A stretch of 64,000 nt of DNA, taken from contig CAXXDQ010000004.1 in NCBI GenBank assembly GCA_963664325.2, positions 544,001 through 608,000 on the forward strand. The letters run 5' to 3'. Made by a program: the position numbers and the translations under genes. Positions within the stretch are counted from its first letter, which is position 1, and every line of letters begins with the position of its first letter. Of the stretch, positions 6,976-47,146 are shown piece by piece. The notes under the pieces are model-generated. The model made no database searches and was not told where the DNA came from. It saw only the letters and a program-made list of their open reading frames with translations. Source of the DNA: Desulfomonilia bacterium. Its GTDB lineage: Bacteria > Desulfobacterota > Desulfomonilia > UBA1062.

Positions 6976-7104
6976 TTTTTCCTCCGGGGTTAAAGTCAAT
7001 AAAAGTTACTTATCAAAAAAATTCAAAATAATCTGTAGGGATATTTTTATGATAATATTGCCCGGATTATTCAACTCTGTTATCAGCCAGGAAAGGAGGC
7101 GGAT

Positions 7105-7893
7105 ATGGAACTGGGTTTAAAAGGAAAAGCGGCTGTAGTCGCAGGGGCAAGCAGGGGACTGGGGTTTTCAATAGCAAAGATACTTGGACTTGAAGGGGCC
7201 AGGCTTGCAATATGCTCAAGGGACAGCGGCAATATCAATAAAGCCTGCGATGAATTAAGGTTGCTTGGAATAGATGCAAAAGCCTTTGTTGCAGATGTCA
7301 GAAAGGCGTCCGACACGAAGGCTTTTATTGATAATGCGGCCCGTGAACTTGGTGGAATCGACATCCTCGTTACAAATGCAGGCGGTCCGCCATCCATGCC
7401 TTTTGAAGAAATTGATGATAATACATGGGAAGAAGGTTTCCGGCTGAACCTTTTAAGCTCGATCATTATGATCCGTGCCGCAATTCCATTCATGAGGGAA
7501 AAGAACTACGGGCGCATAATCAACCTGACCTCCATTGCCGTTAAGCAGCCGATCGAAGGGCTTATCATTTCAAACACGGTCCGGGCAGGCGTTATCGGAC
7601 TGGCAAAAACACTTTCACGCGAGCTTGCCCCATACAACATAACCGTCAATAACATCCTTCCGGGCTATTTCAGGACCTCACGCGTCGAACAGCTTGCGGA
7701 TAGGCTTGCCGAGATAAAAAAAGCCATGCCGGAAGATATTATCGAGTTCTGGAAGAATGATATACCGCTCAAACGACTGGGTGATCCGGACGAAATCGGT
7801 CACCTTACAGCCTTCCTGGCCTCCGACAAGGCGGCATATATAACAGGAACCTCTATTCCGGTTGACGGTGGTTTTTACAAGGGGTTGATGTAG
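7105..7893 (+). CDS. SDR-family oxidoreductase (FabG-like)
   Basis: GASRGLG, NAGG, SNTVR and VDGG motifs. Confidence 0.88.
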   Translation: MELGLKGKAAVVAGASRGLGFSIAKILGLEGARLAICSRDSGNINKACDELRLLGIDAKAFVADVRKASDTKAFIDNAARELGGIDILVTNAGGPPSMPFEEIDDNTWEEGFRLNLLSSIIMIRAAIPFMREKNYGRIINLTSIAVKQPIEGLIISNTVRAGVIGLAKTLSRELAPYNITVNNILPGYFRTSRVEQLADRLAEIKKAMPEDIIEFWKNDIPLKRLGDPDEIGHLTAFLASDKAAYITGTSIPVDGGFYKGLM

Positions 7894-7934
7894 TATTTCC
7901 GGTAAAATCATTTTGGATTGCCGGATTTTTTATG

Positions 7935-7966
7935 AAAAAAAAAGACGCCGGCAATACCGGCGTCTT
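7935..7966 (-). terminator. Rho-independent terminator of the porin gene
   Basis: AAGACGCCGG-caata-CCGGCGTCTT hairpin with an A-run (U-tail on minus strand). Confidence 0.8.
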
Positions 7967-7996
7967 CGTTAAATCTGGTTAAATTCTCAGTTCAGG

Positions 7997-9652
7997 TTAG
8001 AATGTAACCTTGCAGATCCAGCGAGCTGCATAGGTGTCTTTAAGATCTTGTCCGGTTCCATTCCAGGTCTTTAACTCCATTCCTGTTATCGAGCCACCCG
8101 TATAAGTTATTACCGCGTACTGCGAACCTATTTCCCTGAAACTGTTTTCAATAAGTTTTTTGTAGAAACCGCCCGGCTTGTAGTATGCAAGGTCGATTCC
8201 GAATGAAAGGTTGTCCATCCACGCATAATTCAAACGGCCCCTTAATTCCCAGCCGAGGTCTTTTTTAACATCGCCAGAGTAGCAGTCGGTTCCCATCGTA
8301 CCGTCAGCGAAAGTAACAGTACCATTGCCCAAATCGTCTACAGTACTGATGAGTATTGAATTCTCTAAAGTGTCAGCTCCAACGGCATTGGCAAGACCCG
8401 GGGCTGTCTGTTGGCCATTAAGGTTAATTGAGTTGCCGGGATACCAGTTCTCAATATACTTTGTGTTCTCTTTCTGGCCATAGACAAAGTTCAGGTCGCC
8501 AGCAAGTTTTGGTGAGAATTTGTAGGCAAGGTTCAAACGGCCTAGTATGGCGTTAGTAAAACTGTAATTGCCATCAATCCTCGGATCGCCGAGGGCAGCC
8601 TGCGTTGCATAGGTTTCAAATGCCCAGGCATAGATGTCATGGACATCGTTCATGAGCCATGTATCGAGGTTCTCACCGTCATCAAGGTATCCGGAAACAT
8701 ATTCAGGCTTCTTGGCGCCCGGGATATATGCGCCGTCTATCTGGATTGTAGCATTGCCGGGAGTGATTCCAAAGCCAAGCCATCCGCCGAAGATATTGTC
8801 CACTTTCCAGTTACGTTCTGCATCAATTGTTGTACCAACCGGTGAATCCGTATCCACAAGCGTACCGGTTCCATAAGCAAGCTTCATATTCATCTTAAAC
8901 ATGTCGTTGAACTTCTGGTTGAACCAGAGGTGAGGATACCAGATCCTGGTCTGTGCATGACCGGCGCCGGAATACTTGTATGCCAGCCTCATGTCTAGCA
9001 TGGTGGCCGCATTTTCAAATTTGAAAACACCTTCAAACTCATCCTGGTCGCCTGTATTGTGGCTGTTCTGTGTTCCTAAAGTTGTTCCCAATTCCTGCTT
9101 CTTGTTCCAGACCAGTCCGAAGGTCCAGTCTTTTGCTGCAGGAACCTGAATAAACCAGCCGATACCGGTGAAGTCCTTTGTCTTGCCTGCAATGAATTTG
9201 CCTATGTTTGTAGTAACATCGGCATAGAACTGGTCGACAGTGAATGTGTTGTACTGGCTGTAGGGTTTGTAATTACGCGTATTGAGTTTTGAGCCCGTAT
9301 CTGACGGGTCCACGATAGCGCCCGTCGGTACAAATTCAGAATAAGCCTGATAAATGCCATTATAGCCCACTTCATCATCCTGAGATAACTTGTTGTCAAA
9401 TACTTCCAGGTCGCCGACAATCTTGATTTTGTCATTTATCTGAATGGTTGGATAAAAATTTAAATAATGTTTCAAATACATGTCTGTTACTGGAAAAGTA
9501 AGATTGTTGTCTATATCCATAATCAGCGGATAAGAATAGTAACGGCCCTGAATCTCGTATTTGCCCCCTAGTTTAAAGTCAACAGCCCATGCAGGTATCG
9601 CAAAAGCCATTGCCACTATGAAGAGCATTACCCATTTACCCCATTTACCCAT
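7997..9652 (-). CDS. Outer-membrane beta-barrel/porin
   Basis: Signal peptide ending AWA, amphipathic beta-strands, C-terminal Phe (CKVTF). Confidence 0.75.
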   Translation of the reverse strand: MGKWGKWVMLFIVAMAFAIPAWAVDFKLGGKYEIQGRYYSYPLIMDIDNNLTFPVTDMYLKHYLNFYPTIQINDKIKIVGDLEVFDNKLSQDDEVGYNGIYQAYSEFVPTGAIVDPSDTGSKLNTRNYKPYSQYNTFTVDQFYADVTTNIGKFIAGKTKDFTGIGWFIQVPAAKDWTFGLVWNKKQELGTTLGTQNSHNTGDQDEFEGVFKFENAATMLDMRLAYKYSGAGHAQTRIWYPHLWFNQKFNDMFKMNMKLAYGTGTLVDTDSPVGTTIDAERNWKVDNIFGGWLGFGITPGNATIQIDGAYIPGAKKPEYVSGYLDDGENLDTWLMNDVHDIYAWAFETYATQAALGDPRIDGNYSFTNAILGRLNLAYKFSPKLAGDLNFVYGQKENTKYIENWYPGNSINLNGQQTAPGLANAVGADTLENSILISTVDDLGNGTVTFADGTMGTDCYSGDVKKDLGWELRGRLNYAWMDNLSFGIDLAYYKPGGFYKKLIENSFREIGSQYAVITYTGGSITGMELKTWNGTGQDLKDTYAARWICKVTF

Positions 9653-10093
9653 ATCCTTTCCTCCTATAAATAATTTTTTTATTTCTTATCAGGATGCGGT
9701 TCATGGATGCATGCTCTGGGTGCGGGTTTCTCGTTGGATTTGCAATATCTTTTAATATGTCTTTTATTTAGACATATCCCCAACTCTTGTCAATACAACA
9801 TGCATGCCATTTTACAAAAAATGTCATACTTAGATTTTTTATGCCTATGTTTTCAAATCTGCGATGAGACATTTTAAAAAAATAAACATAAATATAATCA
9901 ATATGATAAGCTGTTTTACCAGGAACCAGATAAATAATAAATATTTCAGAAGTAAGGACTTCACTTTTATCAAAACAAATTGCCGGAAAAGGGCATGTTG
10001 TAAGTATTCAACATGTTTAGACGTAATATTGCAAAGTTGACACAGGATAGTAATATATTGACAAAACCCGCTTGCAGTGTGATTGAGTGAGAA

Positions 10094-11779
10094 ATGACAG
10101 AAGGCTCAGTAAAAATATTAAAATGGCTTGTTCTGTTTATAGTCCCCGTATTGATCTATATTGTTTCGCTCCCCGCAATACCTCTTATTGAGCCTGACGA
10201 GGGCCGTTACAGTCTGATTCCTCAGGAGATGAACCAGACGGGAGACTATGTCACCCCAAGGCTTAAGGGTGTTGATTATTTTGAAAAACCCGTTCTGGAT
10301 TACTGGGCAACAGCGGCTTCTTTCAAGATATTCGGGGAAAACGCATTCGCCTCCCGGCTTTTTGTGGCCCTTTGCGCCTGGGGCTGTATATTTCTTGCAT
10401 ACAGGATCGGCAGGCGTTTTCATGACGAGAAGACCGGGATTTTTGCAGCAGCCCTCTTGTCCACTTCAATTTATCATTTTGCAATGGGAAGGGCGCATGT
10501 TCTGGACATGCCCCTTACATTCTTTGTCTGCATGGGCATATGGTCATGCTACAGGTTTTTTTCCGGCGAACGCCGCAAAAGGATCTGGCTTTTCCTTGCA
10601 TACTTTTTTGCAGGTCTCGCCTTTTTGACAAAGGGACTCATCGGTATTGTATTCCCTTTCGCAATAGTTTTCTTCTGGCTTGTCTGCAGAAGGCGGTACA
10701 GGGATGTTTTCCGCCTTATCTCACCTGTGGGATTGATTATACTGCTGGCCTTGACAGCTCCGTGGCTTTATCTTGTGCAAAAAGCAAACCCGGATTTTTT
10801 CAATTTCTTTTTCATTCATGAGCACCTGCAGAGATTCACGACAAGAATTCATAACAGATATGAACCCTTCTGGTTTTTTATCCCAGTTCTGATAGGCGGG
10901 ATTATACCGTGGCTGGGCTATCTGCCGCAGGCCGTTAAAAATATGAGACCCAAACTTGGTTTTATTTACAAGAAAGACGAGACCGTCTTTCTGTTCACCT
11001 GGGCAGGGTTTATTTTTCTGTTCTTTTCCGTATCGTCATCAAAGCTTGTACCTTATATTGCGCCTGTTTTCATCCCGATCTCGGTAATGCTCGGGCACAT
11101 ATTCAGGCTCGGTGACGATGCAATAAAGCAAGGCAGCCATGTCCCGGCAAGCATAACCGCTTCATTGGCAGTCTGGCTGCAGTCGTCGGCCCTCGGGATC
11201 GGGATCCTGTTCCTGCCCCTTTTTGACAAGGGGAGCCTTATTACAATGTCAGGGTGGCTGCCGTATACCATAGTCCCTGTTATCATGCTTCTGTGTCTTA
11301 CTTTTGTCCCCAATATAGCCAAAAACAGGCTCCACTTCGGGTGGTTTTTCAGCATTTATCTTTTTACAGGGCTGTTCTTTCTTTCTCTGCTGTTGCCTGC
11401 GGCAAAATATGTCACACCATACAAATCAGCCTGGCCGATAGTGCAGGCCATCAGGCAGCATGTCCCTGAAGACAGCATTCCTGTCCAGTTCAAGATGAGC
11501 GAGTACGGTATAGACTTTTACACGAGGATGAAAACGCCGGTTGTAGACGATTACGGCGAGCTTGCTTACGGTGTCGCAAAACTTTCAAAAGAGGAAAAAA
11601 TAAGGCGATTCCCTTCAACCGCCGACTTCTTTGAGCAGTATAAAAAGTCCGGAGAAGAGTGGTGCGTGACAGACGACATTTACAAGGTAAAAATTCTGAA
11701 AGAGGTATCCCCTGCAGCGGAAGTCCTATGGCAGAACAGGGAGTTCTTTCTCGTACACATGAAAAGAGGTATGCCTTAA
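10094..11779 (+). CDS. ArnT/PMT-like GT-C glycosyltransferase
   Basis: DEGRY, YFEKP, LTKG and SSSKL.PYI motifs; multiple TM helices. Confidence 0.87.
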   Translation: MTEGSVKILKWLVLFIVPVLIYIVSLPAIPLIEPDEGRYSLIPQEMNQTGDYVTPRLKGVDYFEKPVLDYWATAASFKIFGENAFASRLFVALCAWGCIFLAYRIGRRFHDEKTGIFAAALLSTSIYHFAMGRAHVLDMPLTFFVCMGIWSCYRFFSGERRKRIWLFLAYFFAGLAFLTKGLIGIVFPFAIVFFWLVCRRRYRDVFRLISPVGLIILLALTAPWLYLVQKANPDFFNFFFIHEHLQRFTTRIHNRYEPFWFFIPVLIGGIIPWLGYLPQAVKNMRPKLGFIYKKDETVFLFTWAGFIFLFFSVSSSKLVPYIAPVFIPISVMLGHIFRLGDDAIKQGSHVPASITASLAVWLQSSALGIGILFLPLFDKGSLITMSGWLPYTIVPVIMLLCLTFVPNIAKNRLHFGWFFSIYLFTGLFFLSLLLPAAKYVTPYKSAWPIVQAIRQHVPEDSIPVQFKMSEYGIDFYTRMKTPVVDDYGELAYGVAKLSKEEKIRRFPSTADFFEQYKKSGEEWCVTDDIYKVKILKEVSPAAEVLWQNREFFLVHMKRGMP

Positions 11780-11856
11780 GCTGAAAACCCTGATATTGAA
11801 ACACCATCTTATGTGTGTTATGCCGCATGAAACCAAAGAGTTCTATGGAGACGCAA

Positions 11857-12690
11857 ATGGAAAAAGACTCGTTCACCGGAACAAAATCCTATGTCCTTGA
11901 CCCTGAACTAGCCCGGATTGTCAATGCATCAATCAAGCTCGAGATGCCGCTTCTCCTGAAAGGGGAACCCGGAACGGGCAAGACCCTGCTTGCATATGCC
12001 ATTGCTGAAAACCTGGGCATGCCGCTTATTATCCTCAATGTAAAATCAAGCATGAAGGCGGTCGAGGCGCTTTACCAGTATGATACTTTAACACGCCTGA
12101 ATGACAGCCGGTTCGGTGATTCAAAGCGGGATGTAAGCAATATAGAGAACTATATAAAGATGGGAAAGATCGGACAGTCCTTCACGTCGGACAGCCGTGT
12201 CGTCCTGCTTGTAGACGAGATCGACAAGGCGGATACCGACTTTCAGGACGACCTGCTTGATGTCCTTGACCAGATGAGTTTTGACATAATCGAGATCGAC
12301 AGGACGATTAAAGCAAAAAACCGGCCTATCATGATTATAACGTCGAACGCAAAAAAAGACCTGTCAGACCCGTTCCTCGGCCGCTGCATATTTCACCACA
12401 TCGCATTCCCGGATGCGGACATGATGAGGAAAATCGTGCTGGCCCACTTTCCTTCAATCGATAAGAAGATAAGCGAGGCATGCATAGAGGCCTTCTACAG
12501 GCTGAGAGAGATAAAAGGCGTTGAGAAAAAGCCTGCCACTCGGGAACTTATAAACTGGATACGCATACTGATTATGGATAAGGAATTTGATACGCAATAC
12601 CTTGCCAAAAGGGATGTCCCGTACCTGGGTGTCCTGTTTAAGAAAAGCGAGGACCTGAAACTGGCCCAGAGATATACGGGCGGCTACTAG
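11857..12690 (+). CDS. MoxR-family AAA+ ATPase
   Basis: GEPGTGKT, LVDEIDKAD and IITSN motifs; SD GGAG. Confidence 0.9.
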   Translation: MEKDSFTGTKSYVLDPELARIVNASIKLEMPLLLKGEPGTGKTLLAYAIAENLGMPLIILNVKSSMKAVEALYQYDTLTRLNDSRFGDSKRDVSNIENYIKMGKIGQSFTSDSRVVLLVDEIDKADTDFQDDLLDVLDQMSFDIIEIDRTIKAKNRPIMIITSNAKKDLSDPFLGRCIFHHIAFPDADMMRKIVLAHFPSIDKKISEACIEAFYRLREIKGVEKKPATRELINWIRILIMDKEFDTQYLAKRDVPYLGVLFKKSEDLKLAQRYTGGY

Positions 12691-12695
12691 AGAAA

Positions 12696-12816
12696 AATCA
12701 GGAGACAGGAGTCAGAATGAAAAACAGAGATAAAGAGTCAATAGCAGGGAGTCTGGAGAAAGAATATGGAGCGGTTCATAAAAGGCTCTATACTGTCTCC
12801 TGATTACTGTCTCCTG
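12696..12816. repeat. Intergenic heptamer-like/inverted repeat element
   Basis: AATCAGGAGACAG (12696-12708) is the reverse complement of CTGTCTCCTGATT (12793-12805); TACTGTCTCCTG occurs twice in tandem. Confidence 0.7.
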
Positions 12817-12824
12817 GATCCATT

Positions 12825-14015
12825 ATGTTTGCAGAATTCTTCTATACTCTCAGAGACCGCGGCATACCGGTGAGCCCGACAGGATTTTTGAGGCTTCAGG
12901 AGGCCCTTGACAAGGGGCTTATAGTGAACCTTGAAGACCTCTACTGCATCAGCCGTGCCGTGATGATCAAGAGCGAACGCTACTTCGATATGTATGACCG
13001 TGTGTTTGCCCATCACTTTAAAGGTGCGGAGCTGCCTGACAGTGCCATGGACGAGATAGAAAAGGCCATTGCCGCAATGCTCGAAGAGTGGCTGAAGGAC
13101 CCGGCCCAGATGGCGGATTTCCTGGGCATGAGCACTGAAGACGTCAAAAAGCTTTCACCCGAGGAACTGGAGGAATATTTCAGGAAACGCCTTGAGGACC
13201 AGAAGGAACGCCATGACGGCGGCAACCGCTGGATAGGCACCGGCGGTACATCGCCGGTAGGCCATTCAGGGTTTCATCCCGGCGGTATGCGTGTGGGCGG
13301 GGCCTCGCGAAACCAGTCGGCGGTCAAGGTTGCGCTGGAGAGACGGTACCGCGATTATACACAGGACCAGCGGCTCGGGCCTGCGCAGATTTCGGATGCC
13401 CTGAAGCGTCTCAGGCATATGGTGCCTGCGGGACCGAAAGACAGTCTTAACATAGAAAAAACCATTGTTGAGACCATGAAAAACGCGGGGGAAATAGAGA
13501 TCGTCTTTGACCGCAGGCTCAAGGACAAGCTCAAGATTGTTCTAATGATTGACAACGGCGGGTATTCCATGGACCCGTATGTAAACGTGGTGCAGGTCCT
13601 GTTCAACCATGCCAGGTCCCAGTTCAAGGATGTGAAATTTTATTTCTTCCACAATACCGTATATTCGCTTGTGTGGTCGGATTCTCAGCGAATGAACAAA
13701 CCATTTGCAGTCGAGGAATTCGCCCGGCTGGACCCGGAGACCAGACTCATCATGGTCGGAGATGCATCAATGGCGCCTTACGAGCTATACAGCCGCTACG
13801 GCAGCATCTATTACGGATCACAGATGCAGCGCCCCAGCGTTGAAAGCCTCGTATTCCTTGCCAAGACCTTCAGACATAGTGTATGGCTTAACCCCAAGCA
13901 TGAATACACCTGGCCCGGCACAGAGACCATAATGGCGATATCCGAGATATTCCCCATGTATGAGCTGACACTCAACGGTCTCGACGATGCAATCGGCCGC
14001 CTGATGAAGAAATAA
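12825..14015 (+). CDS. VWA-domain (CoxE-like) partner of MoxR
   Basis: GGNRWIGTGGTSP, DNGGYSM, VGDASMAPYEL and WLNP motifs. Confidence 0.87.
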   Translation: MFAEFFYTLRDRGIPVSPTGFLRLQEALDKGLIVNLEDLYCISRAVMIKSERYFDMYDRVFAHHFKGAELPDSAMDEIEKAIAAMLEEWLKDPAQMADFLGMSTEDVKKLSPEELEEYFRKRLEDQKERHDGGNRWIGTGGTSPVGHSGFHPGGMRVGGASRNQSAVKVALERRYRDYTQDQRLGPAQISDALKRLRHMVPAGPKDSLNIEKTIVETMKNAGEIEIVFDRRLKDKLKIVLMIDNGGYSMDPYVNVVQVLFNHARSQFKDVKFYFFHNTVYSLVWSDSQRMNKPFAVEEFARLDPETRLIMVGDASMAPYELYSRYGSIYYGSQMQRPSVESLVFLAKTFRHSVWLNPKHEYTWPGTETIMAISEIFPMYELTLNGLDDAIGRLMKK

Positions 14016-14021
14016 ATTTTT

Positions 14022-14098
14022 GCGCTCGTAGCTCAGTTGGATAGAGCGTAGGCCTCCGGAGCCTAAGGTCGCAGGTTCGATCCCTGTCGAGCGCACCA
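14022..14098 (+). tRNA. tRNA-Arg(CCG)
   Basis: GCGCTCG/CGAGCGC acceptor stem, TAGGC-CTCCGGA-GCCTA anticodon arm, GTTCGA, encoded CCA. Confidence 0.96.
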
Positions 14099-14103
14099 GT
14101 TAT

Positions 14104-15225
14104 TTAATCCAGTGTTTTCCTGAACCTCATGGTGGCGCCCATGAAAAGAACGGCTCCAAGTATAGCCAGTGCTGCGAACTGCTCCCATAGAACAGTGAGC
14201 CCTACTCCTTTTAAGAAAACGCCGCGGATTATGACCAGGAAATACCTTAGAGGATTGAGATAAGTTATCCACTGGACGAAAACAGGCATGTTGTCTATCG
14301 GGAAAACAAAGCCCGAGAGCATGAAGAAAGGCAGTATCACAAAGAATGTCGTCATCATTGCCTGCTGTTGCGTGGAGCTTATCGTCGAGATGAAAAGCCC
14401 GACGCCGAGTGTGCTCAGGAGGAAAAGCAGGGCGGCTCCGAACAGCAGCAGGGCACTTCCGGCCATCGGCACCGAGAACCAGTATTTGGCGAAAAGCAGT
14501 ATGAATACCATCTGTACTAGCGCAATAATAATGTAGGGAACAGTCTTGCCTATGATGAATTCAGCAGGCCTTATCGGGGTGACTATGACCTGCTCCATGG
14601 TGCCAGCCTCCTTTTCCCTGATAACTGCAATCGACGTCAGAATAAGGCTCAACAGCATTATCAGGAACGCCACTATGCCGGGCACGAAGAAATTCCGTGA
14701 ATTGATGTTGGGATTGTACCACTGCCTGATGCGGGCGTCTATTTCACCATACTTCATGTCCATTGGATAGAGCTTCTTCATCATGAGGCGGTTGTACTCA
14801 TCCAGTATGGTCATCGTGTAGGAAATTCTTATAAATGCCATATTGCTAGTCGCGCCGTCTACTAGTATCTGGACGTCAGAGGTCTGCCCTTTCCTGATTT
14901 TGTCGCTCATGTCGGGAGCCAGTGAAATCCCCAGGTCCGCCTTCTTGTTCAATATCAGGCTGTCCAGCTCCAGGTCGGACTTCGGGTATGCGACCAGGTT
15001 GAAATAGCCGTTTCCCCTGAATGCGTCTATGAATTCACGGCTCTCAATTGTGTTGGCCTGGTCGAAGACGGCAACCCTGATATTTTTTATGTCAAAGTTC
15101 AGGACATAGCCGAATACAAGAATCTGCACCAGGGGCGCTATGATCAGGAGGGGCCTGTTCTTCTTGTCCCTGAAGAGTTCTATGAACTCTTTCCTTACGA
15201 GCTCCCTTATCCTGAGAAGGCTCAC
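14104..15225 (-). CDS. ABC-2 permease (YbhR-like)
   Basis: YNP...FFVPG, REKEAGTMEQ and LSGFVFPI motifs. Confidence 0.9.
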   Translation of the reverse strand: MSLLRIRELVRKEFIELFRDKKNRPLLIIAPLVQILVFGYVLNFDIKNIRVAVFDQANTIESREFIDAFRGNGYFNLVAYPKSDLELDSLILNKKADLGISLAPDMSDKIRKGQTSDVQILVDGATSNMAFIRISYTMTILDEYNRLMMKKLYPMDMKYGEIDARIRQWYNPNINSRNFFVPGIVAFLIMLLSLILTSIAVIREKEAGTMEQVIVTPIRPAEFIIGKTVPYIIIALVQMVFILLFAKYWFSVPMAGSALLLFGAALLFLLSTLGVGLFISTISSTQQQAMMTTFFVILPFFMLSGFVFPIDNMPVFVQWITYLNPLRYFLVIIRGVFLKGVGLTVLWEQFAALAILGAVLFMGATMRFRKTLD

Positions 15226-16355
15226 ATTCCCTCCTTCTTGAGCAGCAGGTAATTGATTGCAAAAAGAGCCACCGGAATGGCAGCGAGCACTGCATAATTT
15301 GGCCAGACAGCCGTGAATCCGGCATTCCTCATGTATATGTCACCGAGGATGCTGATATAATACCTTGCCGGGACTATATATGTGATGAGCTGCAGAACTT
15401 TGGGCATGTTTGATATGGGAAAGACAAAATTGGATAAGAGGAATGACGGAAGATAGGTAATCAGGATCGCCGTCTGGTTGGCTATCATCTGGTTCTTGAT
15501 AACGCTTGAGAGCAGAAGTCCGATCGAGAGTGCAACCATTATGTAGAGCCCGGAGGCGGACACCATTATCAGAAAGCTTTCCTTCATGACGACGTTGAAC
15601 AGTACCTGCCCCATTATTATAGCCACCATGACATCGGTCATGGCTATAAGAAAATAGGGTATCATCTTGCCCACAAGGAAATCAAACGCACCCAGCGGCA
15701 GTGATTTAAGGGTCTCCATCGTTCCGTTTTCGTATTCGCGCGCGATGACAAGCGAAGTTAGCAAAGCTCCCGCAATGATAATTATGACAGCCACGATTCC
15801 GGGGATGATAAAGTTCCTGCTGATGAGGTTTTCATTGAACCAGACCCTGATACGGCCGTCTACCGGCTGATTTATGGGCGTCATACCCTGTCGGTTGATG
15901 TAGTCCGTCAGCAGGTCCCTGTTGTAAAGGCTAATAAATGCATTTACATAACCTTTACTGGTATTGGCAAAGTTGGGGTCGCTGGCGTCAAGAATCACCT
16001 GAATCGAAGCGGGCCTGTCGGCGTCAAGATTTTTAGTGAAGCCCGGAGGTATGATGAATGCGAGTGAGGTCTCCTCGTGGTCAAGGTATCTGTCGACCGC
16101 ATCAACGCTTTCCTCCTGCGCCACGATCTTGAAATACCTTGATGATTTTATATGCCTGATAAAGTCTCTGCTTTCATTAGTCCTGTCCTGATCTACAATA
16201 ACGGTTTTAATATACTCGACGTCTAGGCTGAGTGCGTATCCAAACAAAAGAATCAGTGAAAGAGGGATGGCAAACGCCAGAATGAGGCTGCGCCAGTCCC
16301 TGACAAGGTGATAGAACTCCTTTCCTGCGACCGCCCTTATCTTGACGAAACTCAT
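15222..16355 (-). CDS. ABC-2 permease (YbhS-like)
   Basis: FGYALSLD, REYENGTME motifs. Confidence 0.9.
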   Translation of the reverse strand: MSFVKIRAVAGKEFYHLVRDWRSLILAFAIPLSLILLFGYALSLDVEYIKTVIVDQDRTNESRDFIRHIKSSRYFKIVAQEESVDAVDRYLDHEETSLAFIIPPGFTKNLDADRPASIQVILDASDPNFANTSKGYVNAFISLYNRDLLTDYINRQGMTPINQPVDGRIRVWFNENLISRNFIIPGIVAVIIIIAGALLTSLVIAREYENGTMETLKSLPLGAFDFLVGKMIPYFLIAMTDVMVAIIMGQVLFNVVMKESFLIMVSASGLYIMVALSIGLLLSSVIKNQMIANQTAILITYLPSFLLSNFVFPISNMPKVLQLITYIVPARYYISILGDIYMRNAGFTAVWPNYAVLAAIPVALFAINYLLLKKEGM

Positions 16356-39066: not shown

Positions 39067-39145
<79 letters not shown>

Positions 39146-39153
39146 GTAATAAC

Positions 39154-39190
39154 AATAGGTTAGACCGTTTGATCTAACCTATTTTCATTT
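39154..39190 (+). terminator. Element-supplied terminator behind tRNA-Glu
   Basis: AATAGGTTAGA...TCTAACCTATT hairpin with T-rich tail. Confidence 0.7.
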
Positions 39191-39489
39191 TAAGGCATGT
39201 TGTCCCCACGCTATTCCCCACAGGCAAACCTAATTTCCCCTTTTTTCTTAAGAAGTATCTCGCCTGAGAATTGAATAACTTTTTAAGTTTCATAATAGGC
39301 AGTTACACAGTTGGCCCATAAATGGAAATGAAGAAAACTCCAAGGGGGATTCACTCTTTAACACATATTTCTATCAGTATATTACGTTTTCCGTACCGCC
39401 CAACTTTCAGGTTGAAATACCTGTAAAACCTCATTAAGATTGATTCTGTAACAGTATGTCACATGGAAATTTATCCTTTTCCAGCGGGA

Positions 39490-39540
39490 CCCCTCGAGGT
39501 ACTGTAAACCGCAAAGCAAAAACCCGCAACAGGACCCGCT
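39490..39540 (-). other. Putative lambda-type cos site (cosQ + cosN-like)
   Basis: Minus strand GGGTCCT...TTGCGG-TTTACAGT-ACCTCG versus lambda GGGTCCT...TTACGG-GGCGGCG-ACCTCG. Confidence 0.5.
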
Positions 39541-39704
39541 CCATAGGCAGGCCCTTGAAGCAGTCTTAAAGGTTTGTAACATCTACCCGGCAAGTTATGC
39601 AGGGGCATCATGGAGCCTTAGACCTATTAATCATTTAACATACTGTTTATATTAAAAGTAATTGAACTATTCAACAACAAGGCATTGTTAACAATGTCAC
39701 ACTC

Positions 39705-39938
39705 TCGGGACTTCGGGACATTGAAAAAGCAAAGTCCCGACCCGTAGGCCCTTTTCTTTGCCGGGCTTATGGAAAATCTCGGGACTTCGGGACATATATA
39801 AAAGATTAATACTCTTTTTTTTATTATATAATGATTTTTAACAGTTTTCTTAAAAACAAAGTCCCGAAGTCCCGAAAACTAGTAATGATGATTGTTTGCA
39901 GGCGGGACATTGAAAAAGCAAAGTCCCGAATGTCCCGA
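39705..39938. repeat. Iteron array, putative replication origin
   Basis: Ten CGGGAC/GTCCCG copies (5 per orientation) around an AT-rich core; 27-bp duplicate at 39714 and 39903. Confidence 0.8.
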
Positions 39939-40047
39939 CCCCTGTGCTGATATCGGATATTGAAGGGCTTGCAGCAGACCATAAGTGTTAACGGTTGCCT
40001 GGTTCATTTTATTAATATCTTAATACTTAAATACCGATAAACCTTTC

Positions 40048-40191
40048 ATGGTTCGCATACCGATTGTATTAACCGCCGATCAATTAGAAATGCTCCGAAA
40101 GATATTTCAAACTGAATCTGTAATTACCGAAGCCTTGGCCGAACAGATAAGAAATATCATTCTTGTTTGGGAAGAGTTAGGAGAGAAATAA
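40048..40191 (+). CDS. Small 47-aa ORF, possible ribbon-helix-helix protein
   Basis: Manually read MVRIPIVLTADQLEMLRKIF...; followed by hairpin CACAGCCGG..CCGGCTGTG; no clear SD. Confidence 0.4.
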   Translation: MVRIPIVLTADQLEMLRKIFQTESVITEALAEQIRNIILVWEELGEK

Positions 40192-40319
40192 AAGGCACAG
40201 CCGGTTATATTTGCCCGGCTGTGTGTGGTTCATCCCTTCTATGGCAGGGCTGTAATCCAGATTAGAAATTCTTTGTTGAGTTAGGGTTTTTTCACCAAAG
40301 CGAGCCTTTTAAAGATTGT

Positions 40320-40805
40320 TTATAAAACCTTTATGAAAACATTTATTTTTTTGTTTGGAATTTCAGCGGAATCCATGTCTTTAATGACATAACCCGTCAG
40401 CGCGAAAGGCGAGTTGCAGCTACAATGGGCACCTCTATATCCTGAGCCATGATCGCGACCACGAAGCAAACCATGATGATGCCACGTTTGACAATAGGGG
40501 CAGAAAATCTCAATATCGCCGCCTGCTGTATGATAACCTTCCACCGTGGGTATCGGAACATCCTTTTTTTTGTTCCACAAATCCCGTGACATGGAAATGC
40601 CATAAATTTCAACCAAACGTCTCCATTCAGTGAGACAGGCAGGGCGGCCTTTGCAATTTCGACAAGTTAACTCGCTACAAGTTACAATGACTTGATCGGC
40701 GTCGTGTTGTGCTGTGCAAAATTGCCACCACTTACAGGTTTTACATTTTTTGGGACGGAATATTTTAATATCTTCACCACTGGGATTTTTAAAAATCTTA
40801 TTCAT
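40320..40805 (-). CDS. Cys/His-rich hypothetical protein (putative Zn-binding)
   Basis: CKTC, CRNC, CPYCQTWHHHG and AHCSC motifs; SD AAAGGA. Confidence 0.65.
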   Translation of the reverse strand: MNKIFKNPSGEDIKIFRPKKCKTCKWWQFCTAQHDADQVIVTCSELTCRNCKGRPACLTEWRRLVEIYGISMSRDLWNKKKDVPIPTVEGYHTAGGDIEIFCPYCQTWHHHGLLRGRDHGSGYRGAHCSCNSPFALTGYVIKDMDSAEIPNKKINVFIKVL

Positions 40806-40898
40806 ATTTTTCCTTTGGGGAATCCTCCCCACTGTTTAAAAAATCTTTTAATGACCCTTCATTTCCGCTTTACCTTTGTAGTCTTGTCTCTGGGATAC

Positions 40899-43181
40899 TT
40901 AAGACGTGTTCGGGATTTCCGAATTTGATTTTATGTCTTTAAGGAGTGTTTCAATTCTGTCATTCCACATGAGACACCGAACGCTCTCACGGTTATTAGC
41001 GCGTAAATTTCTGTCGGATATCGTTAAACCGGCGCTTCTGAGGAGTTGTCCCAGGGCCTTCGGAGTTGAAATCCTATGATCCGAACGACAATTTTCATGA
41101 AATTTATCGTAAATATATCCGATAGCAAGACGCCCGTTATCAACATCGGGACGTAATTTTTGAAGTGTTTCGATTAAATATTTTAATTGGCCGCTTGCTT
41201 CAAACTTTGATTTGATCGGCTTTTCAGTAGTCAGCATCTCACATGCATCAACAACGTTCGACATATAGAATTTTGCAGCCTCGATACCTGCTGCGACTTC
41301 AGGGACACCCAAAGTCCCGGTTGGTTCTAAGCCTTGCACAAATTGAGACAGGCAATATAAAATTCCTGAAAGCCTTAATGCGTATGAAATCATTTTCGGA
41401 ACGAAACCTTGAAAGATGGGCGGCAGATAGCGCAACCAAGAAAAAAGCTCGTTTCTCCAATCACTAAGGAAATCAAACGCAGGATCGTCGAATTTTAAAA
41501 AGACACCGGAACCGGAACCCCGCGAATCAGCCCAAATCATCGCAGCTTTGAGGGTATACTCCCAGATAGCCCTGTTTTCTTCGGTCCAGATTTCTGAAGT
41601 AAGCAGAGGCAACGGACCGCCACTATCAGTGGTTAATAAAAAGCGGTACATTGTTCCGTCAGCTTGATATAACTTGTTTTTCCCACTAAACATCCTGCGC
41701 CAAACCTCGGGTTGGACGCCGCCGAAAATTGATATCCTTGCATTTCTGATCAGGCGGGTCTTCTCAGCATCTGCACGTACGATTCGCGCTGGCTTCCCGT
41801 CCCAGAGCGTCAACCACGCTTCACGATCAGCGCCCGGTTTATATGCATTCTGACTACTCAAAAAGGCGCTGAGTTCAGCGAGGATCGCCACGATACCGCC
41901 ATGTTCTGAAATATCTTTTTGGATTCCTTCAAGTGTCAAGTCCGTTACAAAATACCCCCTCGCCCTCTCTGGCTTATCCTGCTGCGCCTTCTCCTTTGGT
42001 TTAAACTTGTTCCAGTCACTGAGCGCCTTTTCATAAATTTGATTTGCCTGATTTTGTGTTTCATACAACAAACGGCAAAGTGAACTCGCCGCTGGGGTTT
42101 TGCCAGCTCCAGAACCCCTTATGTCCCCAATCCAAAAAATTAAAGGTTCGCTCCAGGAGCTTTTTACCTTAACAGTAATGGTCGATCCGAGTAATGACGC
42201 CAAAATGCAAAAAGCCACTCCCGGCAGGGCATCCGGGGTGGTTGCATGAGACCGGGCCAGTTGTTGAAGGCTTCTGCCGATGGATTTCGGCAAGATTTTG
42301 AATGGGAAGCTAATACGAGGGAATAAATGCCGGGCAAGTTCCCAATCTTTGAGCGGTGCGGGTTCACATGACAGCAACGGTTCCCAGCCAGGCGCGGCCT
42401 CAACAAGTGCCAGAAGTTCGGCTTTGCCGTTTCCGGCATCTTTCCAATCTATGATGTCTCCCTTTTCAGAAAGTCCCGGCAGGTCTATAACCTTTAGAGA
42501 AGCCACCTTGCACTGGAGTCCAGATGTGAGCATGTCCCGATAAATGCGGCCCGCTGTGTCATTGTCTGGGAGAATAATGATGTTCTTGCCGGACAAGTGC
42601 TCTATCATGCTTTCACTCAATTTACTGTTAGAGCCTGAATCAAGCGAAGTGCTGCATAAATCCCAGGAGTTTAAAAGATCGGCTTTTTTTTCACCTTCAA
42701 CAATGTAAACAATTTCAGCTTTATTGACGCCCGGCAAGTTATAGAGGACAGACTCACAGCCGCGCCCTGTTGCGTTGCCGTGTTTGAATATAAATTCCTT
42801 GGTGCGTCCTTCCCTGCCAGGTTCGAGACGTATTTTATAATAAAGCACTTTTCCGCTTTCATCGTGGTATTTATACCGACCCGTTTCGGTCTGCTTGACA
42901 GGGGGGGCGGGTTCTGGGTCCAGGTATTTTGCAGCCAGGCTCTTGAGGTCGAGGCCTTCTAATTTCATGTGAAAATCGACAATATCGCCACCTTTCGGCG
43001 AACATTTTCGACAAAGATAGCGGCCTTCCTTAACAAAATAAACAAAGCCGTCGTTATGAGCATCACAGCAAGGGAAGGGGCAAGGTCCTGCAAACTCATT
43101 TGCATTTTTCCTCTTTAAGTCAGGTAATATTTCACATATTGAGGGCAAAGAATTTTTCAGCTTTTTAATATCAATCGACAT
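40899..43181 (-). CDS. Primase (Zn-ribbon + TOPRIM) fused to DUF3987/YfjI-like P-loop domain
   Basis: GPCP..C / CRKC, VEGEKKAD, PDND, GSGAGKT, DLTLEGI and GGVQP motifs; start set at MSIDIKK. Confidence 0.85.
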   Translation of the reverse strand: MSIDIKKLKNSLPSICEILPDLKRKNANEFAGPCPFPCCDAHNDGFVYFVKEGRYLCRKCSPKGGDIVDFHMKLEGLDLKSLAAKYLDPEPAPPVKQTETGRYKYHDESGKVLYYKIRLEPGREGRTKEFIFKHGNATGRGCESVLYNLPGVNKAEIVYIVEGEKKADLLNSWDLCSTSLDSGSNSKLSESMIEHLSGKNIIILPDNDTAGRIYRDMLTSGLQCKVASLKVIDLPGLSEKGDIIDWKDAGNGKAELLALVEAAPGWEPLLSCEPAPLKDWELARHLFPRISFPFKILPKSIGRSLQQLARSHATTPDALPGVAFCILASLLGSTITVKVKSSWSEPLIFWIGDIRGSGAGKTPAASSLCRLLYETQNQANQIYEKALSDWNKFKPKEKAQQDKPERARGYFVTDLTLEGIQKDISEHGGIVAILAELSAFLSSQNAYKPGADREAWLTLWDGKPARIVRADAEKTRLIRNARISIFGGVQPEVWRRMFSGKNKLYQADGTMYRFLLTTDSGGPLPLLTSEIWTEENRAIWEYTLKAAMIWADSRGSGSGVFLKFDDPAFDFLSDWRNELFSWLRYLPPIFQGFVPKMISYALRLSGILYCLSQFVQGLEPTGTLGVPEVAAGIEAAKFYMSNVVDACEMLTTEKPIKSKFEASGQLKYLIETLQKLRPDVDNGRLAIGYIYDKFHENCRSDHRISTPKALGQLLRSAGLTISDRNLRANNRESVRCLMWNDRIETLLKDIKSNSEIPNTS

Positions 43182-43449
43182 GTTTTTCACCCTTCTTGTT
43201 ACCAATCCCGGCCCGGTTCGGATTTCTGCCGAAACGATAATTGTGAAGGTCACACCTGACGATTGGGCAGAGTTTCACCTCAGAAACGCACCCGACACAA
43301 CAGGAAAGGCAATGTGCCCGGATAGCTTTAAGAGGGGACAATTTGACAACCTGAATTTTGTGCGATAATACGATTTCATCATTTAGCTTTGCCTCGGATT
43401 TACCCCCCGCGCCGCTGTAATCGGCTCGGGGTTCATTTTCGCGATTCAT
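43171..43449 (-). CDS. Small Cys-rich phage-type protein
   Basis: SPLKAIRAHCLSCCVG...VKLCPIVRCDLHNYRFG; SD GAGG. Confidence 0.7.
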   Translation of the reverse strand: MNRENEPRADYSGAGGKSEAKLNDEIVLSHKIQVVKLSPLKAIRAHCLSCCVGCVSEVKLCPIVRCDLHNYRFGRNPNRAGIGNKKGEKHVD

Positions 43450-43456
43450 AGCATCC

Positions 43457-43651
43457 TCAACGGTTTTCAGGGTCAACACGGTGCTTGTTCATGTACAATT
43501 CCAGATCCTCAACTTTGTAGCGAATAGACGCGCCAATACGATGATATGCAGGCCCCCGGCCCAACTGTCGGTAGTTCCTCAAAGTTTGAGTTGCCAGACC
43601 GATGATTTTTGCAGCTTCTTTGTCATTGACATAAGTTTGAACATTTAACAT
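43457..43651 (-). CDS. AlpA/Xis-like helix-turn-helix protein (excisionase)
   Basis: KEAAKIIGLATQTLRNYR...GPAY..IG..IRY; SD GGAGG. Confidence 0.85.
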   Translation of the reverse strand: MLNVQTYVNDKEAAKIIGLATQTLRNYRQLGRGPAYHRIGASIRYKVEDLELYMNKHRVDPENR

Positions 43652-43825
43652 TTTAAACCTCCACTTATTTGTAGTTAATAAGCGTATACCGGATTGAAAA
43701 TGGTCTTTTGGCAAATAGACGGAAATTAGAAATAATTATAAAATATTTATCTTTTAATATAATTAATATGTTAGAAGACGATCACAGGAAATTATCAAGA
43801 AATCATTGGCAAATTATAAGGATGT

Positions 43826-44719: not shown

Positions 44720-45004
44720 TCATGCAGCTTTCAATATAGTAATCTTGTGATTCTTTTGTCCCGCTGTCCACAAATCGAGCTTCCCCTGCATTTGTAACCA
44801 GCTTTCCGGAGTGGTATCGGTTGCCTTACCTATCCTGATAGCCATATCTGGACTTAATGCAACACGACCATTAACCAGTTCACTCAAAGCCTTTCTGCTT
44901 ACACCAAGATGCTTTGATGCATCAGTTATAGTAATGCCAAGAGGCTTTAAAACATCCTCACTAAATACAACTCCGGGATGCGTAGGCTTTCTTCTTGTTA
45001 TCAT
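44720..45004 (-). CDS. higA: HigA antitoxin (HTH-XRE)
   Basis: PTHPG, LGVSRKALSELVNG, DMAIRI, TPESWL. Confidence 0.92.
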   Translation of the reverse strand: MITRRKPTHPGVVFSEDVLKPLGITITDASKHLGVSRKALSELVNGRVALSPDMAIRIGKATDTTPESWLQMQGKLDLWTAGQKNHKITILKAA

Positions 45005-45017
45005 GTCTTAATCTCCC

Positions 45018-45296
45018 TTAATGGTAGTCCTGGTAATCAACCAGGACTGCATCATTTCCTTCAAACTTGAATGTCACCCGCCAATTGCCGTTTACCCACA
45101 CTGACCACATGCCTTGCATATCGCCTTTCAATTCATGAAGCTTATACGCCGGAAGGTTCATATCCTGTGGACACATTGAAGCATCAAGTCTGTCAAGAAT
45201 ACGTTCAAGCTTCGCAGTATGATCGGGCATGATTCCTTTTTTGCTTCCCTCAATAAAAAACTTCTCAAGCCCTTTGTGTTTGAAAGACTTAATCAT
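45018..45296 (-). CDS. higB: HigB (RelE-family) toxin
   Basis: MIKSFKHKGL, LHELKG, VNGNWRVTF, DYQDYH. Confidence 0.92.
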   Translation of the reverse strand: MIKSFKHKGLEKFFIEGSKKGIMPDHTAKLERILDRLDASMCPQDMNLPAYKLHELKGDMQGMWSVWVNGNWRVTFKFEGNDAVLVDYQDYH

Positions 45297-45356: not shown

Positions 45357-45665
45357 CTAATCTGGTTCGATCCCTATTTTTAGTATGCGGTATAATTCGC
45401 AGTCAGATGCCTTAATTGCATCAAGATCAAGCATAATTATTGTTTTATCCTTAGCATTTATAGGCCATAAGGCAACAGATGAACCCTGAATCATTAAACG
45501 CCTTAATAGATATTCCCCATCCTTTTTATATATTACCTGCTGTTTGTGTATTGGTTTGTCGACCGGCTCAATAAGCAATGAAATTCCATTGACGTATTTC
45601 GGAAAAAACATATCACCTGTAACATTGAAACTAAAAATATTTTTGGCCTTTTCCGCTTGTTTCAT
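45357..45665 (-). CDS. Stand-alone S24 peptidase-like domain protein
   Basis: FNVTGDMFFP...G..LLIEP...LLRRL...LWPIN resembles the LexA/CI C-terminal fold. Confidence 0.55.
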   Translation of the reverse strand: MKQAEKAKNIFSFNVTGDMFFPKYVNGISLLIEPVDKPIHKQQVIYKKDGEYLLRRLMIQGSSVALWPINAKDKTIIMLDLDAIKASDCELYRILKIGIEPD

Positions 45666-45718: not shown

Positions 45719-46924
45719 TCATGCGCTTTTTAATGAAATCGCCTTGTCTATAATGTCCCCCACTATGCCGGATGCTTTCTTTAAAGCGTCATCCCTCAGA
45801 TGGGCATATCGTTGCGTCATCCTAAAATCCTTGTGCGTCATGAGCTTCTGTAAGGTGTAGATATCAACCTGACCGGATGAAGCCAGCATCGAAGCATAGG
45901 CGTGCCTTAAACCGTGCATGGGGCGGAAATTCTTGGGCAATCCCGCCCTCTGTTTTATCCTTGTCACGACATGATATATCTGTGCGCGCTGATTTCCCTT
46001 ATCTCCAGGGAACACAAACGGGCTTTCCGTTTTCTCGATGGAACTTAAAAGTTCTCCGGCCTTTTCGCTTATCGGGATCATGGCGTTGCGGCCACCCTTG
46101 GGGTTCCTTATCATTATGAAGCCTGTATTGAAGTTTATATCATTCCACTTTAGCTTTAAGAGTTCGCCGCGCCGCATGCCTGTATGCAGGGCCATGAGCA
46201 TCATGTTTGCTACTGTCCGGTTCGGATCCGCCTCTATCGCTATCAGAAGCCTTCTCAACTCGTCCGGTGAAAGGTCTTCCGTAACCACATTATCAACACG
46301 GGGCTTCTGGATTGAAAAGCCAAGGCCTTCAGTAAGGCCTTTCTTGTAACCGTAGTTCGCAATCCTGGTTATCAGATTAAGCACATGCTTGACCGTCTGT
46401 GGTTTGTGCGTCTTGCTCAATTTTATGCGAATCCTGTCAATGTCCAGGGAGACAATTTCATGAGGCTGTTTGACTCCAAGGGGTTTCTCGATGAACTTCC
46501 TGTATCTCGATATATCAATCTGAGCGGGTTTCTTGAACCTCATTTCGGCAATGATCTTGTCAAGGTCGTCGTCTTTAATTTCCTTGTCGGCGAGCTCCTT
46601 CTCATCGGTAGTTGATTTCTCTTTAATGTATCTTCCGAACAAGCGGTTAAACGTCCAGCTTGAATCTCCTGCCCTCCTTGCTGCCTCTTCTTCTGCCCGG
46701 CGCTCTACATTAGTTCTTTGCCGCCCTTCAAGTTTTTCAACTCTGAGACTGTTTGCCCTTGCAGGTGTCATATCGTCCTGCTTCTGCCAGCCCGCCTTTT
46801 CCTCAACAAGCTTACCGTTCTTCCTGTAACGGATATAGTAAACCTTCTCTATGCCCGTTTCACCTTGCGCGTTTATGTAGAACACTCCGGGATATTTTGT
46901 TTTGTGTCTTACCATTTTCGACAT
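45719..46924 (-). CDS. int: Tyrosine recombinase/integrase
   Basis: TGMRRGEL, KGG, HGLRH, LMTH...TQRY catalytic residues; next to att. Confidence 0.95.
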   Translation of the reverse strand: MSKMVRHKTKYPGVFYINAQGETGIEKVYYIRYRKNGKLVEEKAGWQKQDDMTPARANSLRVEKLEGRQRTNVERRAEEEAARRAGDSSWTFNRLFGRYIKEKSTTDEKELADKEIKDDDLDKIIAEMRFKKPAQIDISRYRKFIEKPLGVKQPHEIVSLDIDRIRIKLSKTHKPQTVKHVLNLITRIANYGYKKGLTEGLGFSIQKPRVDNVVTEDLSPDELRRLLIAIEADPNRTVANMMLMALHTGMRRGELLKLKWNDINFNTGFIMIRNPKGGRNAMIPISEKAGELLSSIEKTESPFVFPGDKGNQRAQIYHVVTRIKQRAGLPKNFRPMHGLRHAYASMLASSGQVDIYTLQKLMTHKDFRMTQRYAHLRDDALKKASGIVGDIIDKAISLKSA

Positions 46925-47098
46925 ATTTACCCCTTCCCTATTGAGTTGTTCCCCACACTATTCCCCACACCTAAAAGACATTTATAAGTAATTTGAAGTA
47001 ATGTCAAGTTAATGATAAACTCTTTATAATGGCTTATATGGCCTTTCTAGGGGTGCAATAAGTAAAACAGGGTAAACAGATAAAAAGGCGCTATAGTT

Positions 47099-47146
47099 GG
47101 CCTTTCACGCCGGCAACAGGGGTTCGAATCCCCTTGGGGACGCCAA
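47099..47146 (+). repeat. att site (duplicated 3' half of tRNA-Glu)
   Basis: 48-bp identity with 39098-39145. Confidence 0.95.

Follow-up and report, generated by a model that had tools for sequence, protein, structure and literature searches.

Does the gene-free end of a small integrated island in a Desulfomonilia bacterium carry a packaging site of the phage lambda kind, and would that site let the island be packaged by the enzyme of a helper phage? The question is raised by a stretch of 64,000 nucleotides (the window: contig CAXXDQ010000004.1 of assembly GCA_963664325.2, positions 544,001 to 608,000 of the forward strand), in which an 8,001-bp element inserted at a tRNA-Glu gene ends in a region that reads, on the minus strand from 39537 to 39495, GGGTCCT-GTTGCGGGTTTTTGCT-TTGCGG-TTTACAGT-ACCTCG. 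This is exactly as quoted in a preliminary description of the locus, which likened the motif to cosQ and cosN of the lambda cohesive-end site (cos); the lambda string given there agrees with the record NC_001416 (right end ...ACGGGTCCTTTCCGG...GGTTACG, left end GGGCGGCGACCTCGCGGG...). We conclude with good confidence that the stretch is homologous to the cos region of phages with a gpNu1/gpA-type terminase, the shared part being mostly a cosB-like stretch. With more reserve, we lean towards a functional cos of the gpNu1/gpA class in an island resembling phage-inducible chromosomal islands (PICIs), the island probably being a phage satellite that borrows the packaging enzyme of its helper.

The evidence that carries this answer comes from comparisons anchored on the candidate cosQ, in which the heptamer GGGTCCT was excluded and the 143 nt downstream of it were aligned to 12 reference cos regions. 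The closest reference lies in a genome of the same bacterial family, G029, one of five among 52 genomes of the order with the gpA-type terminase family. G029 has a full prophage (terS, terL, portal, capsid-protease and integrase), in which a primase gene is followed by a 220-nt gap, terS (phrog_57) and terL (phrog_15, gpA type); apart from its own record, the only relatives of this TerL were two distant viral loci and one distant genome locus. The gap contains CGGGTCCTTTCCG, identical to lambda at 13 of 13 positions, and, 183 nt before the terS ATG, the same cosQ-like 9-mer as the island (GCGGGTCCT, 9/9). The global score of the candidate against G029, 32, was reached by none of 1500 genome windows, none of 1500 shuffles and 0–1 of 2000 block shuffles (which keep local composition, in blocks of 10–48 nt), and the score against lambda, 19, by one of 1500 windows, none of 1500 shuffles and 1–4 of 2000 block shuffles. 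G029 scores higher with the candidate (32) than with lambda (25) or with any other reference. Considering the genome's own 351 GGGTCCT sites as a natural null, under four scoring schemes, the candidate ranks first of 351 against G029 in all four and against lambda in three, being second in the remaining one; these top ranks hold likewise among the 79 sites that are AT-rich.

The signal is concentrated in the cosB-like part. Nucleotides 48–143 after cosQ score 34 against G029, compared with -4.6 ± 8.1 in shuffles (0/2000 reach it), and are colinear over 95 nt; a local alignment of candidate and G029 from cosQ to TGGGCGGT scores 54 vs 28.5 ± 4.8 in shuffles (0/500), a score reached by 7 of 5,999 random genome windows. 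Among 122 genomes of the class (about 530 Mb), the candidate and G029 alone contain a composite pattern, cosQ-N100-130-ATTTCAAC-N6-10-TGGGCGGT; its reversed form is absent from them, and IMG/VR contigs contain no copy of the pattern. The AT-rich DNA that had been pointed out where cosB would lie (GC 0.366 for 39230–39494, vs 0.429 over the whole island and 0.463 over the window) is specifically similar to the G029 spacer between cosN and terS. The anticipated similarity to the DNA directly before terS in prophages of related hosts was found by anchored alignment with G029, though not by BLASTn.

The cosQ word has a wider distribution of its own. Among 30 gpA-type loci of the phylum, eight have GGGTCCT upstream on the TerL strand (42,578 nt), as against one match on the opposite strand upstream and three downstream (41,397 nt, both strands), and all eight upstream matches share a lambda-like context, (A/G)CGGGTCCTTCC. 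The octamer formed by the heptamer and its preceding C, CGGGTCCT, is common to the candidate, lambda and two satellite-like islands of the same bacterial family, in G005 and G035. The exact heptamer is found upstream of gpA-type TerL in the phylum, in G029 and in both of these islands; the lambda cosQ word seems to be conserved far outside the enterobacteria. As judged from these sequences, GGGTCCT is a real and conserved signature of gpNu1/gpA-type packaging regions in the phylum. In the form GGGTCCT(T)CC it lies 670–1410 nt upstream of the TerL ATPase domain in loci L186, L189, L192, L193, L195, L199, L201 and L206.

The two islands also show what is placed where the candidate site lies. The G005 island (L098; G005:C178, 5920–13483) is a 7.5-kb insertion at tRNA-Thr between att repeats of 46 bp; the arm repeat GTCCCCATTCTGTCCCCAT is present at either end, iterons TGCAGACATTGCAGAC adjoin the end of the primase gene, and the DUF3987 primase is of the same family as that of the window island (41% identity). 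Its order is origin, cosQ-like element, gpNu1-like terS and att end; the cosQ-like element ACGGGTCCTT lies 117 nt before the terS gene, whose 161-aa product matches phrog_57 at 1.7e-21 and has a helix-turn-helix (HTH) that matches solved TerS DNA-binding domains, including that of lambda gpNu1. It looks like a PICI-like satellite with a cos–terS (rpp-like) layout. The G035 element (L234; G035:C57, about 5000–16000) comprises int, an excisionase-like gene, a primase gene, cosQ, a clearly lambda-like cosN (GACGGCGACCCGCAGG) and a terS-like gene; no gpA-type terminase was found in the G035 genome. GGGTCCT precedes the terS-like genes of both islands by about 105–117 nt on the coding strand, and the TerS-like proteins are 50% identical to each other and 23–25% identical to the G029 phage TerS. 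In both, as in the window, an integrase/primase island has its cosQ-like element between the replication genes and the att end, and the G005 island moreover shares the tRNA insertion, the DUF3987 primase, the arm repeats at both ends and the iterons on the primase side. Unlike the window island, they carry the gpNu1-like TerS/Rpp-like gene: in the window island no TerS-like sequence was detected by tblastn (E ≤ 1), by family searches or by tblastx. Anchored similarity of the candidate to the G005 and G035 cos regions was not significant. A third island, in G002, has an integrase 84% identical to that of the window and carries an HGGxSTG/TerS-like protein, and four further primase-bearing loci (L099–L102) contained no TerS-like gene. 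In G005 and G002, terS-like genes occupy the end that is gene-free in our island; in view of these genes and of the match to G029, a reading of the lambda match as pure chance was set aside.

The elements of the candidate site, together with the other features of the island, are collected in the table below.

Table. Features of the candidate packaging site and of the island that carries it (window coordinates; offsets are in nucleotides from cosQ).
Feature	Position	Strand	Offset, candidate / G029	Remarks
cosQ-like element GCGGGTCCT	39531-39539	-	0 / 0	heptamer GGGTCCT = 39537->39531
Putative cosN, GCGG / TTTACAGTACCT / CGAGGG	39491-39512	-	25-46 (candidate)	
GCGGT		-	25 / 25	
ACC(T)CG		-	37 / 37	
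cosB-like region	39394-39489	-		blocks colinear with G029 cosN-to-terS spacer
TAAA(A)TTTC(C)ATGT.ACAT		-	64 / 65	
cosB-like block TAAATTTCCATGTGACAT (offsets 64 / 65)	39473-39456	-		
cosB-like block ATTTCAAC	39418-39411	-	119 / 125	
cosB-like block TGGGCGGT	39402-39395	-	135 / 140	
Third same-strand ATTTC[AC]A copy	39323-39329	-		other copies start at 39470 and 39418
attL core	39098-39145	+		exact 48-bp repeat, 3' part of tRNA-Glu(ttc) (tRNA 39067-39144)
Island end	39146-39228	+		T-run hairpin 39148-39189 and arm-type repeat TCCCCACGCTATTCCCCACA 39203-39222
Origin	39700-39940			three exact 15-bp iterons, further half-sites, AT-rich core
170-aa Cys-rich protein	40320-40832	-		last gene ahead of the gene-free end; no family match
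Primase-helicase (CHC2 zinc finger + DUF3987)	40899-43253	-		PF13148, E 3e-30; phrog_239, phrog_2373
AlpA/excisionase-like HTH protein, 85 aa (HTH_17)	43457-43714	-		PF12728, E 1e-9; phrog_66
HigB/HigA-type toxin-antitoxin pair	44720-45296	-		PF05015, E 5e-22; PF01381
102-aa peptidase S24 (LexA/UmuD-type) ORF (open reading frame)	45357-45665	-		adjoins integrase; S24 domain only, without DNA-binding domain
Tyrosine integrase	45719-46924	-		PF00589, E 2e-31; phrog_1
attR core	47099-47146	+		second exact copy of the 48-bp repeat

Judged against the features of a lambda-class cos, as given in the excerpted text of PMC9026076, the site shows a cosQ upstream of cosN (identical to lambda at 7 of 7 positions, or 8 of 8 with the preceding C) and a fixed spacing of cosQ, nick region and right flank, in a pattern that was drawn up with the data already in view. 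In lambda and in L206, ACC(T)CG stands at offset 38; the ACCTCG noted at first is within 1 nt of the lambda distance. CG[CA][GA]G at offsets 40–42 occurs in 6 of the 12 reference cos regions and in 6 of the 351 genomic GGGTCCT sites, the candidate included. The nick sites in the putative cosN are placed by position alone. In the account of PMC9026076, cosB consists of one or more R sequences bound by TerS at a set distance from cosN, and cos stands directly before terS in phages or before rpp in PICIs. The cosB-like part shows neither lambda-type R repeats (R3-I1-R2-R1) nor an IHF consensus; it does contain ATTTC[AC]A, a motif chosen post hoc, in three copies within 142 nt, compared with 0.15 per 300 nt in AT-rich windows, and this may be a repeat bound by TerS. 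Downstream of the candidate there is no terS or rpp gene, nor any other; the att arm and the tRNA follow.

We suggest the following course of events, in which cleavage, the positions of the nicks, the identity of the helper and the number of units per capsid are all things that we infer. A helper phage would induce excision and replication, yielding concatemers of the island. The site would be read on the minus strand between origin and att end, in the order cosQ (39539-39531), cosN (39512-39491) and cosB-like stretch (39489-39394): the small terminase subunit of the helper would bind the cosB-like stretch, a mimic of the helper's own, and the large subunit would nick at cosN, with cosQ serving termination. 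Several island units would then fill one helper capsid. The six units, or lambda-sized headful of about 48 kb, proposed in the preliminary description are a matter of arithmetic, with no known capsid size behind the figure. The further proposal that the island hijacks a gpNu1/gpA-type terminase agrees with the similarity of the site and with the lack of an island TerS; it finds no counterpart in a helper or terminase within the genome or genus. Because three island proteins are without known function, packaging purely in cis, as was also proposed, is not demonstrable.

Such a course would resemble that of E. coli PICIs in part. The excerpts of PMC9026076 and PMC6092414 used here describe cos-type PICIs of E. 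coli that, like the window island, have int, an AlpA-type regulator, a pri-rep gene with adjacent origin, no virion genes and no TerS, and one of them, EcCICFT073, is packaged as several units per full-size capsid (PMC6092414). Their cos is lambda-like, with cosQ and cosN almost identical to their counterparts in the helper, and in the excerpted account they are without a helper-like cosB, an rpp gene about 100 bp past cosN retargeting TerS (PMC9026076). The window island differs from the islands so described in having a phage-like cosB, a divergent cosN core and no Rpp- or TerS-like gene, and it differs in its host, which belongs to another phylum. With lambda itself the site shares the octamer, ACCTCG at nearly the same distance, an A/T-rich stretch after cosN and significant anchored similarity over 143 nt; it is unlike lambda cos in having no cohesive-end core, no two-fold symmetry, no R3-I1-R2-R1 or IHF consensus and no following Nu1 gene.

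Several results weigh against a functional cos. In cosN the core is identical to the lambda cohesive end at only 4 of 12 positions (ACCT), and two-fold symmetry extends to 2 of 16 bp (0–4 in neighbouring registers) compared with 10 of 16 in lambda, so that neither a conserved 12-bp cohesive end nor the 10/16 symmetry is found; in lambda-like phages and their PICIs the cohesive end, its flanks and this symmetry are conserved (PMC9026076). GTTG follows the candidate cosQ where 11 of the 12 references have TCC. Over the first 48–55 nt beyond cosQ no reference is significantly similar: for the first 48 nt, 580 of 2000 shuffles do as well against G029, and the first 55 nt come 206th of 351 by mean and 97th by maximum. 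Of the 12 references, the anchored score is clearly significant for G029 and lambda only, marginal for L206 and L193 and null for the other eight, and since references and blocks were examined after the cosQ had been noticed, the p-values need a discount of about 12-fold. No terminase, HK97-type capsid or portal gene is present in the genome, which is 95.6% complete; gpA is absent from the three other genomes of the genus; no helper was found in genome or genus, and no near-identical cos was found. With a profile hidden Markov model built from 10 phage cos regions, the site takes place 1187 of 1616 in the genome and scores -0.0 bits. The gene-free end has no second copy in its own genome, BLASTn of 50,697 phage records gave nothing at the site (and one match, with E 0.1, within the origin), neither the viral nor the genome collections contain the exact 23-mer, and no close relative of the island sharing the candidate end was found.

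Some of these points would fit a relic, that is, a site descended from a phage cos, for example from a cos–terS module of the kind present in the G005 and G035 islands after loss of terS, that no longer serves packaging. The relatives have a terS-like gene right after cosQ and the island has none, the part next to cosN is the least conserved and without symmetry, and no helper is in sight. We nevertheless consider a relic unlikely, given that over 140 nt the distances between cosQ and the cosB-like blocks differ from those in G029 by no more than 1–6 nt, a regularity that decay without constraint would wear away, that elsewhere the island seems undamaged (its 48-bp att repeats and three iterons are exact and its genes open), and that the tblastn and tblastx searches revealed no remnant of terS. 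What we observe is homology of the site to phage cos, synteny with related cos–terS modules and no TerS-like gene in the island; a cos that still functions is in our opinion the most likely reading.

The possibility that an ordinary AT-rich spacer between att arm and origin happens to contain lambda-like words is, in our estimation, less probable again than a relic. Unanchored tests do give it some colour. GGGTCCT occurs 351 times in the 4.3-Mb genome, GGGTCCT-N25-35-ACCTCG four times and the three-part motif once, and the heptamer and ACCTCG by themselves are weak evidence. In unanchored local alignment to the lambda junction 41 of 300 shuffles reach the score of the candidate, whose best match is a non-colinear 13-mer, and the 44-nt lambda stretch from cosQ to ACCTCG is matched equally well or better at 24,977 of 8,615,184 genome positions: unanchored similarity to lambda is ordinary. 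Searches of BLAST type with queries starting at 39146, 39200 or 39229 and ending at 40320 were likewise null at the motif: 60 relatives match 39146–39228 only; 121 other genomes of the class gave two marginal short matches, both outside the motif; a plasmid collection (BLASTn) and sets of 84 and 99 fetched loci (blastn and tblastx) gave no match to the gene-free end; and blastn-short of the candidate against five gpA loci was empty. With conservation in mind, relatives were also sought for the primase and the 170-aa protein; all were distant or absent. In addition, the anchored tests are post hoc, and six viral contigs with cosQ..GCGGT..ACCTCG, in GC-rich coding DNA, show that such words arise by chance; as negative controls, they gave null-level anchored scores. 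Chance would, however, have to account for a first rank among 351 against two references in three to four of four schemes, with 0–1 of 2000 block shuffles reaching the score, for a composite pattern found nowhere in about 530 Mb except at the candidate and in the cos region of a prophage, and for the position of the site, which is where related islands have cos–terS. By the measures first proposed for this locus the similarity goes beyond chance only weakly; by the anchored tests it clearly does so. The best match of the generic cos profile in this genome lies outside the window (G000:C4:360583-360611, E 0.99), reads GACGGGTCCTTCCAGG and may be a chance match or another cos remnant.

Least probable of all is another cis element shared with phages (a late promoter or regulator site, an origin accessory, a small RNA, or the oriT of a conjugative helper), for although a GC-rich hairpin of 9 bp, with a U-rich tract after it, has the minus-strand GGGTCCT as its 3' arm, an inverted repeat of 10 bp (39450-39465 / 39632-39647) flanks the site and the origin is just 160 bp off, the RNA folds no better than shuffles (z -1.07 and +0.62) and has no Rfam match, there is no downstream gene to regulate, Pfam and PHROGs scans of the island ORFs show no relaxase or mobilization family, and the shared heptamer is the lambda termination subsite, which in phages lies upstream of terS.

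Returning to a functional cos in a PICI-like satellite, we tentatively suggest, as a view we hold to be rather less than even, that the island belongs to an undescribed radiation of PICI-like satellites with lambda-class cos in this bacterial family close to Syntrophaceae, the literature search having covered cos subsites and PICI packaging without being aimed at this host group. Within the radiation it would be a minimal form: the TerS/Rpp-like gene kept by its relatives would have been dropped, packaging would proceed purely by mimicry of the helper's cosQ and cosB, and the cohesive-end core would be unlike that of every reference seen here. If so, gpA-type terminases would read cosQ alike from enterobacteria to this phylum while cosN could drift, and this would invert the situation described for E. 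coli PICIs, to which a TerS-less and Rpp-less island relying on cosB mimicry in place of cosB replacement would offer a natural contrast.

The phage satellites whose packaging sites have been defined come mainly from enterobacteria, Pasteurellaceae, vibrios and Gram-positive cocci, and here sequence alone points to cos-type satellites, and to helpers of a lambda-type lineage, in anaerobes of another phylum whose lineage is uncultured. The stretch is concrete, at about 150 bp, and is consequently testable. A practical rule also emerges: cos sites that escape BLASTn and generic profiles are found by combining the cosQ word with anchored alignment to pre-terS regions.

As to the island as a whole, the 8,001-bp unit of the preliminary description is real, being delimited by exact 48-bp direct repeats (39098-39145 / 47099-47146) whose copies lie 8,001 bp apart. 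We read the element as an island of PICI/P4 type, small, integrative and self-replicating, and it fits the pattern of Gram-negative PICIs, with features taken from the excerpted text of PMC6092414: it combines an integrase (PF00589) with a specific att site (the 48-bp repeats at tRNA-Glu), a predicted AlpA-type regulator (the 85-aa HTH_17 protein) and a pri-rep gene with an adjacent iteron origin, the 170-aa gene and a 47-aa ORF lying in between. All island genes are on the minus strand, and PHROGs searches of 12 island ORFs (nine of them genes) found no virion structural family. In Gram-negative PICIs, as PMC6092414 describes them, packaging by a helper phage follows helper-specific induction.

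P4 and the cos-type SaPIs (Staphylococcus aureus pathogenicity islands; for example SaPIbov5) are small integrative replicons that carry their helper's cos and use the helper's terminase. P4-like elements have sid, psu, delta and epsilon beside int and alpha, and SaPIs have ccm and cpm. No island protein matches the P4 capsid-size or regulatory families or the SaPI ccm/cpm families in PHROGs and Pfam, and in this respect the island is not P4-like.

The gene-free end, 39146-40320, in which no ORF has a match in Pfam, PHROGs or NCBIfam, places the candidate site between the hairpin and arm repeat of the att end and the iteron origin. Two of the iterons (39705-39719 and 39779-39793) have the same orientation and the third (39861-39875) is inverted; the core at 39800-39860 has a GC content of 0.13. 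The arm-type repeat TCCCCACGCTATTCCCCACA has a second copy at 46950-46969, and two copies occurred in none of 100 shuffles. A scan for promoters and terminators gave one weak promoter-like site on the plus strand and the tRNA hairpin, and nothing more. The 47-aa ORF (40048-40191, plus strand, opposite to the genes) has no family match, looks by eye ribbon-helix-helix-like and ends at a GC-rich hairpin (40195-40230) that looks like a terminator of the minus-strand operon.

The 170-aa protein is an orphan as a whole, its only match in a library clustered at 90% being itself, and its C-terminal ~65 aa (CxxC...HHH...C.C) have 270 distant matches among small unnamed proteins. A 265-aa protein and a second 102-aa protein have no assigned function; Protein Atlas was uninformative on the 170-aa and 265-aa proteins. 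In three sequencing runs of one sample (X1–X3, available as contigs only) the island is contiguous with its flanks and shows neither joints nor pile-ups of ends, and no second contig matches the cos stretch at ≥90%; a run with raw reads, X4, is without the organism. Island depth is 5.4 in X2 (flanks 11.5 and 11.8) and 12.9 in X1 (flanks 10.8 and 8.1), too weak a difference to speak for partial loss, and the X1–X3 contigs are one base short at 39654 relative to the window.

Finally, the tRNA-Glu locus is an insertion hot spot in the genus (window 39146-39243; L035, L036, L037). In G002, tRNA-Glu(ctc) carries a sister island of 6.5 kb whose replication module is lambda-O-like; G003 has at tRNA-Glu a 1.55-kb remnant with integrase fragments and attR; and in G001 the remnant there comprises toxin–antitoxin genes and a split recombinase that is of another type. 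Three genomes of the genus have the island-end stretch 39146-39228 conserved beside tRNA-Glu, and all of these insertions keep the ~80 nt that come first past the tRNA.

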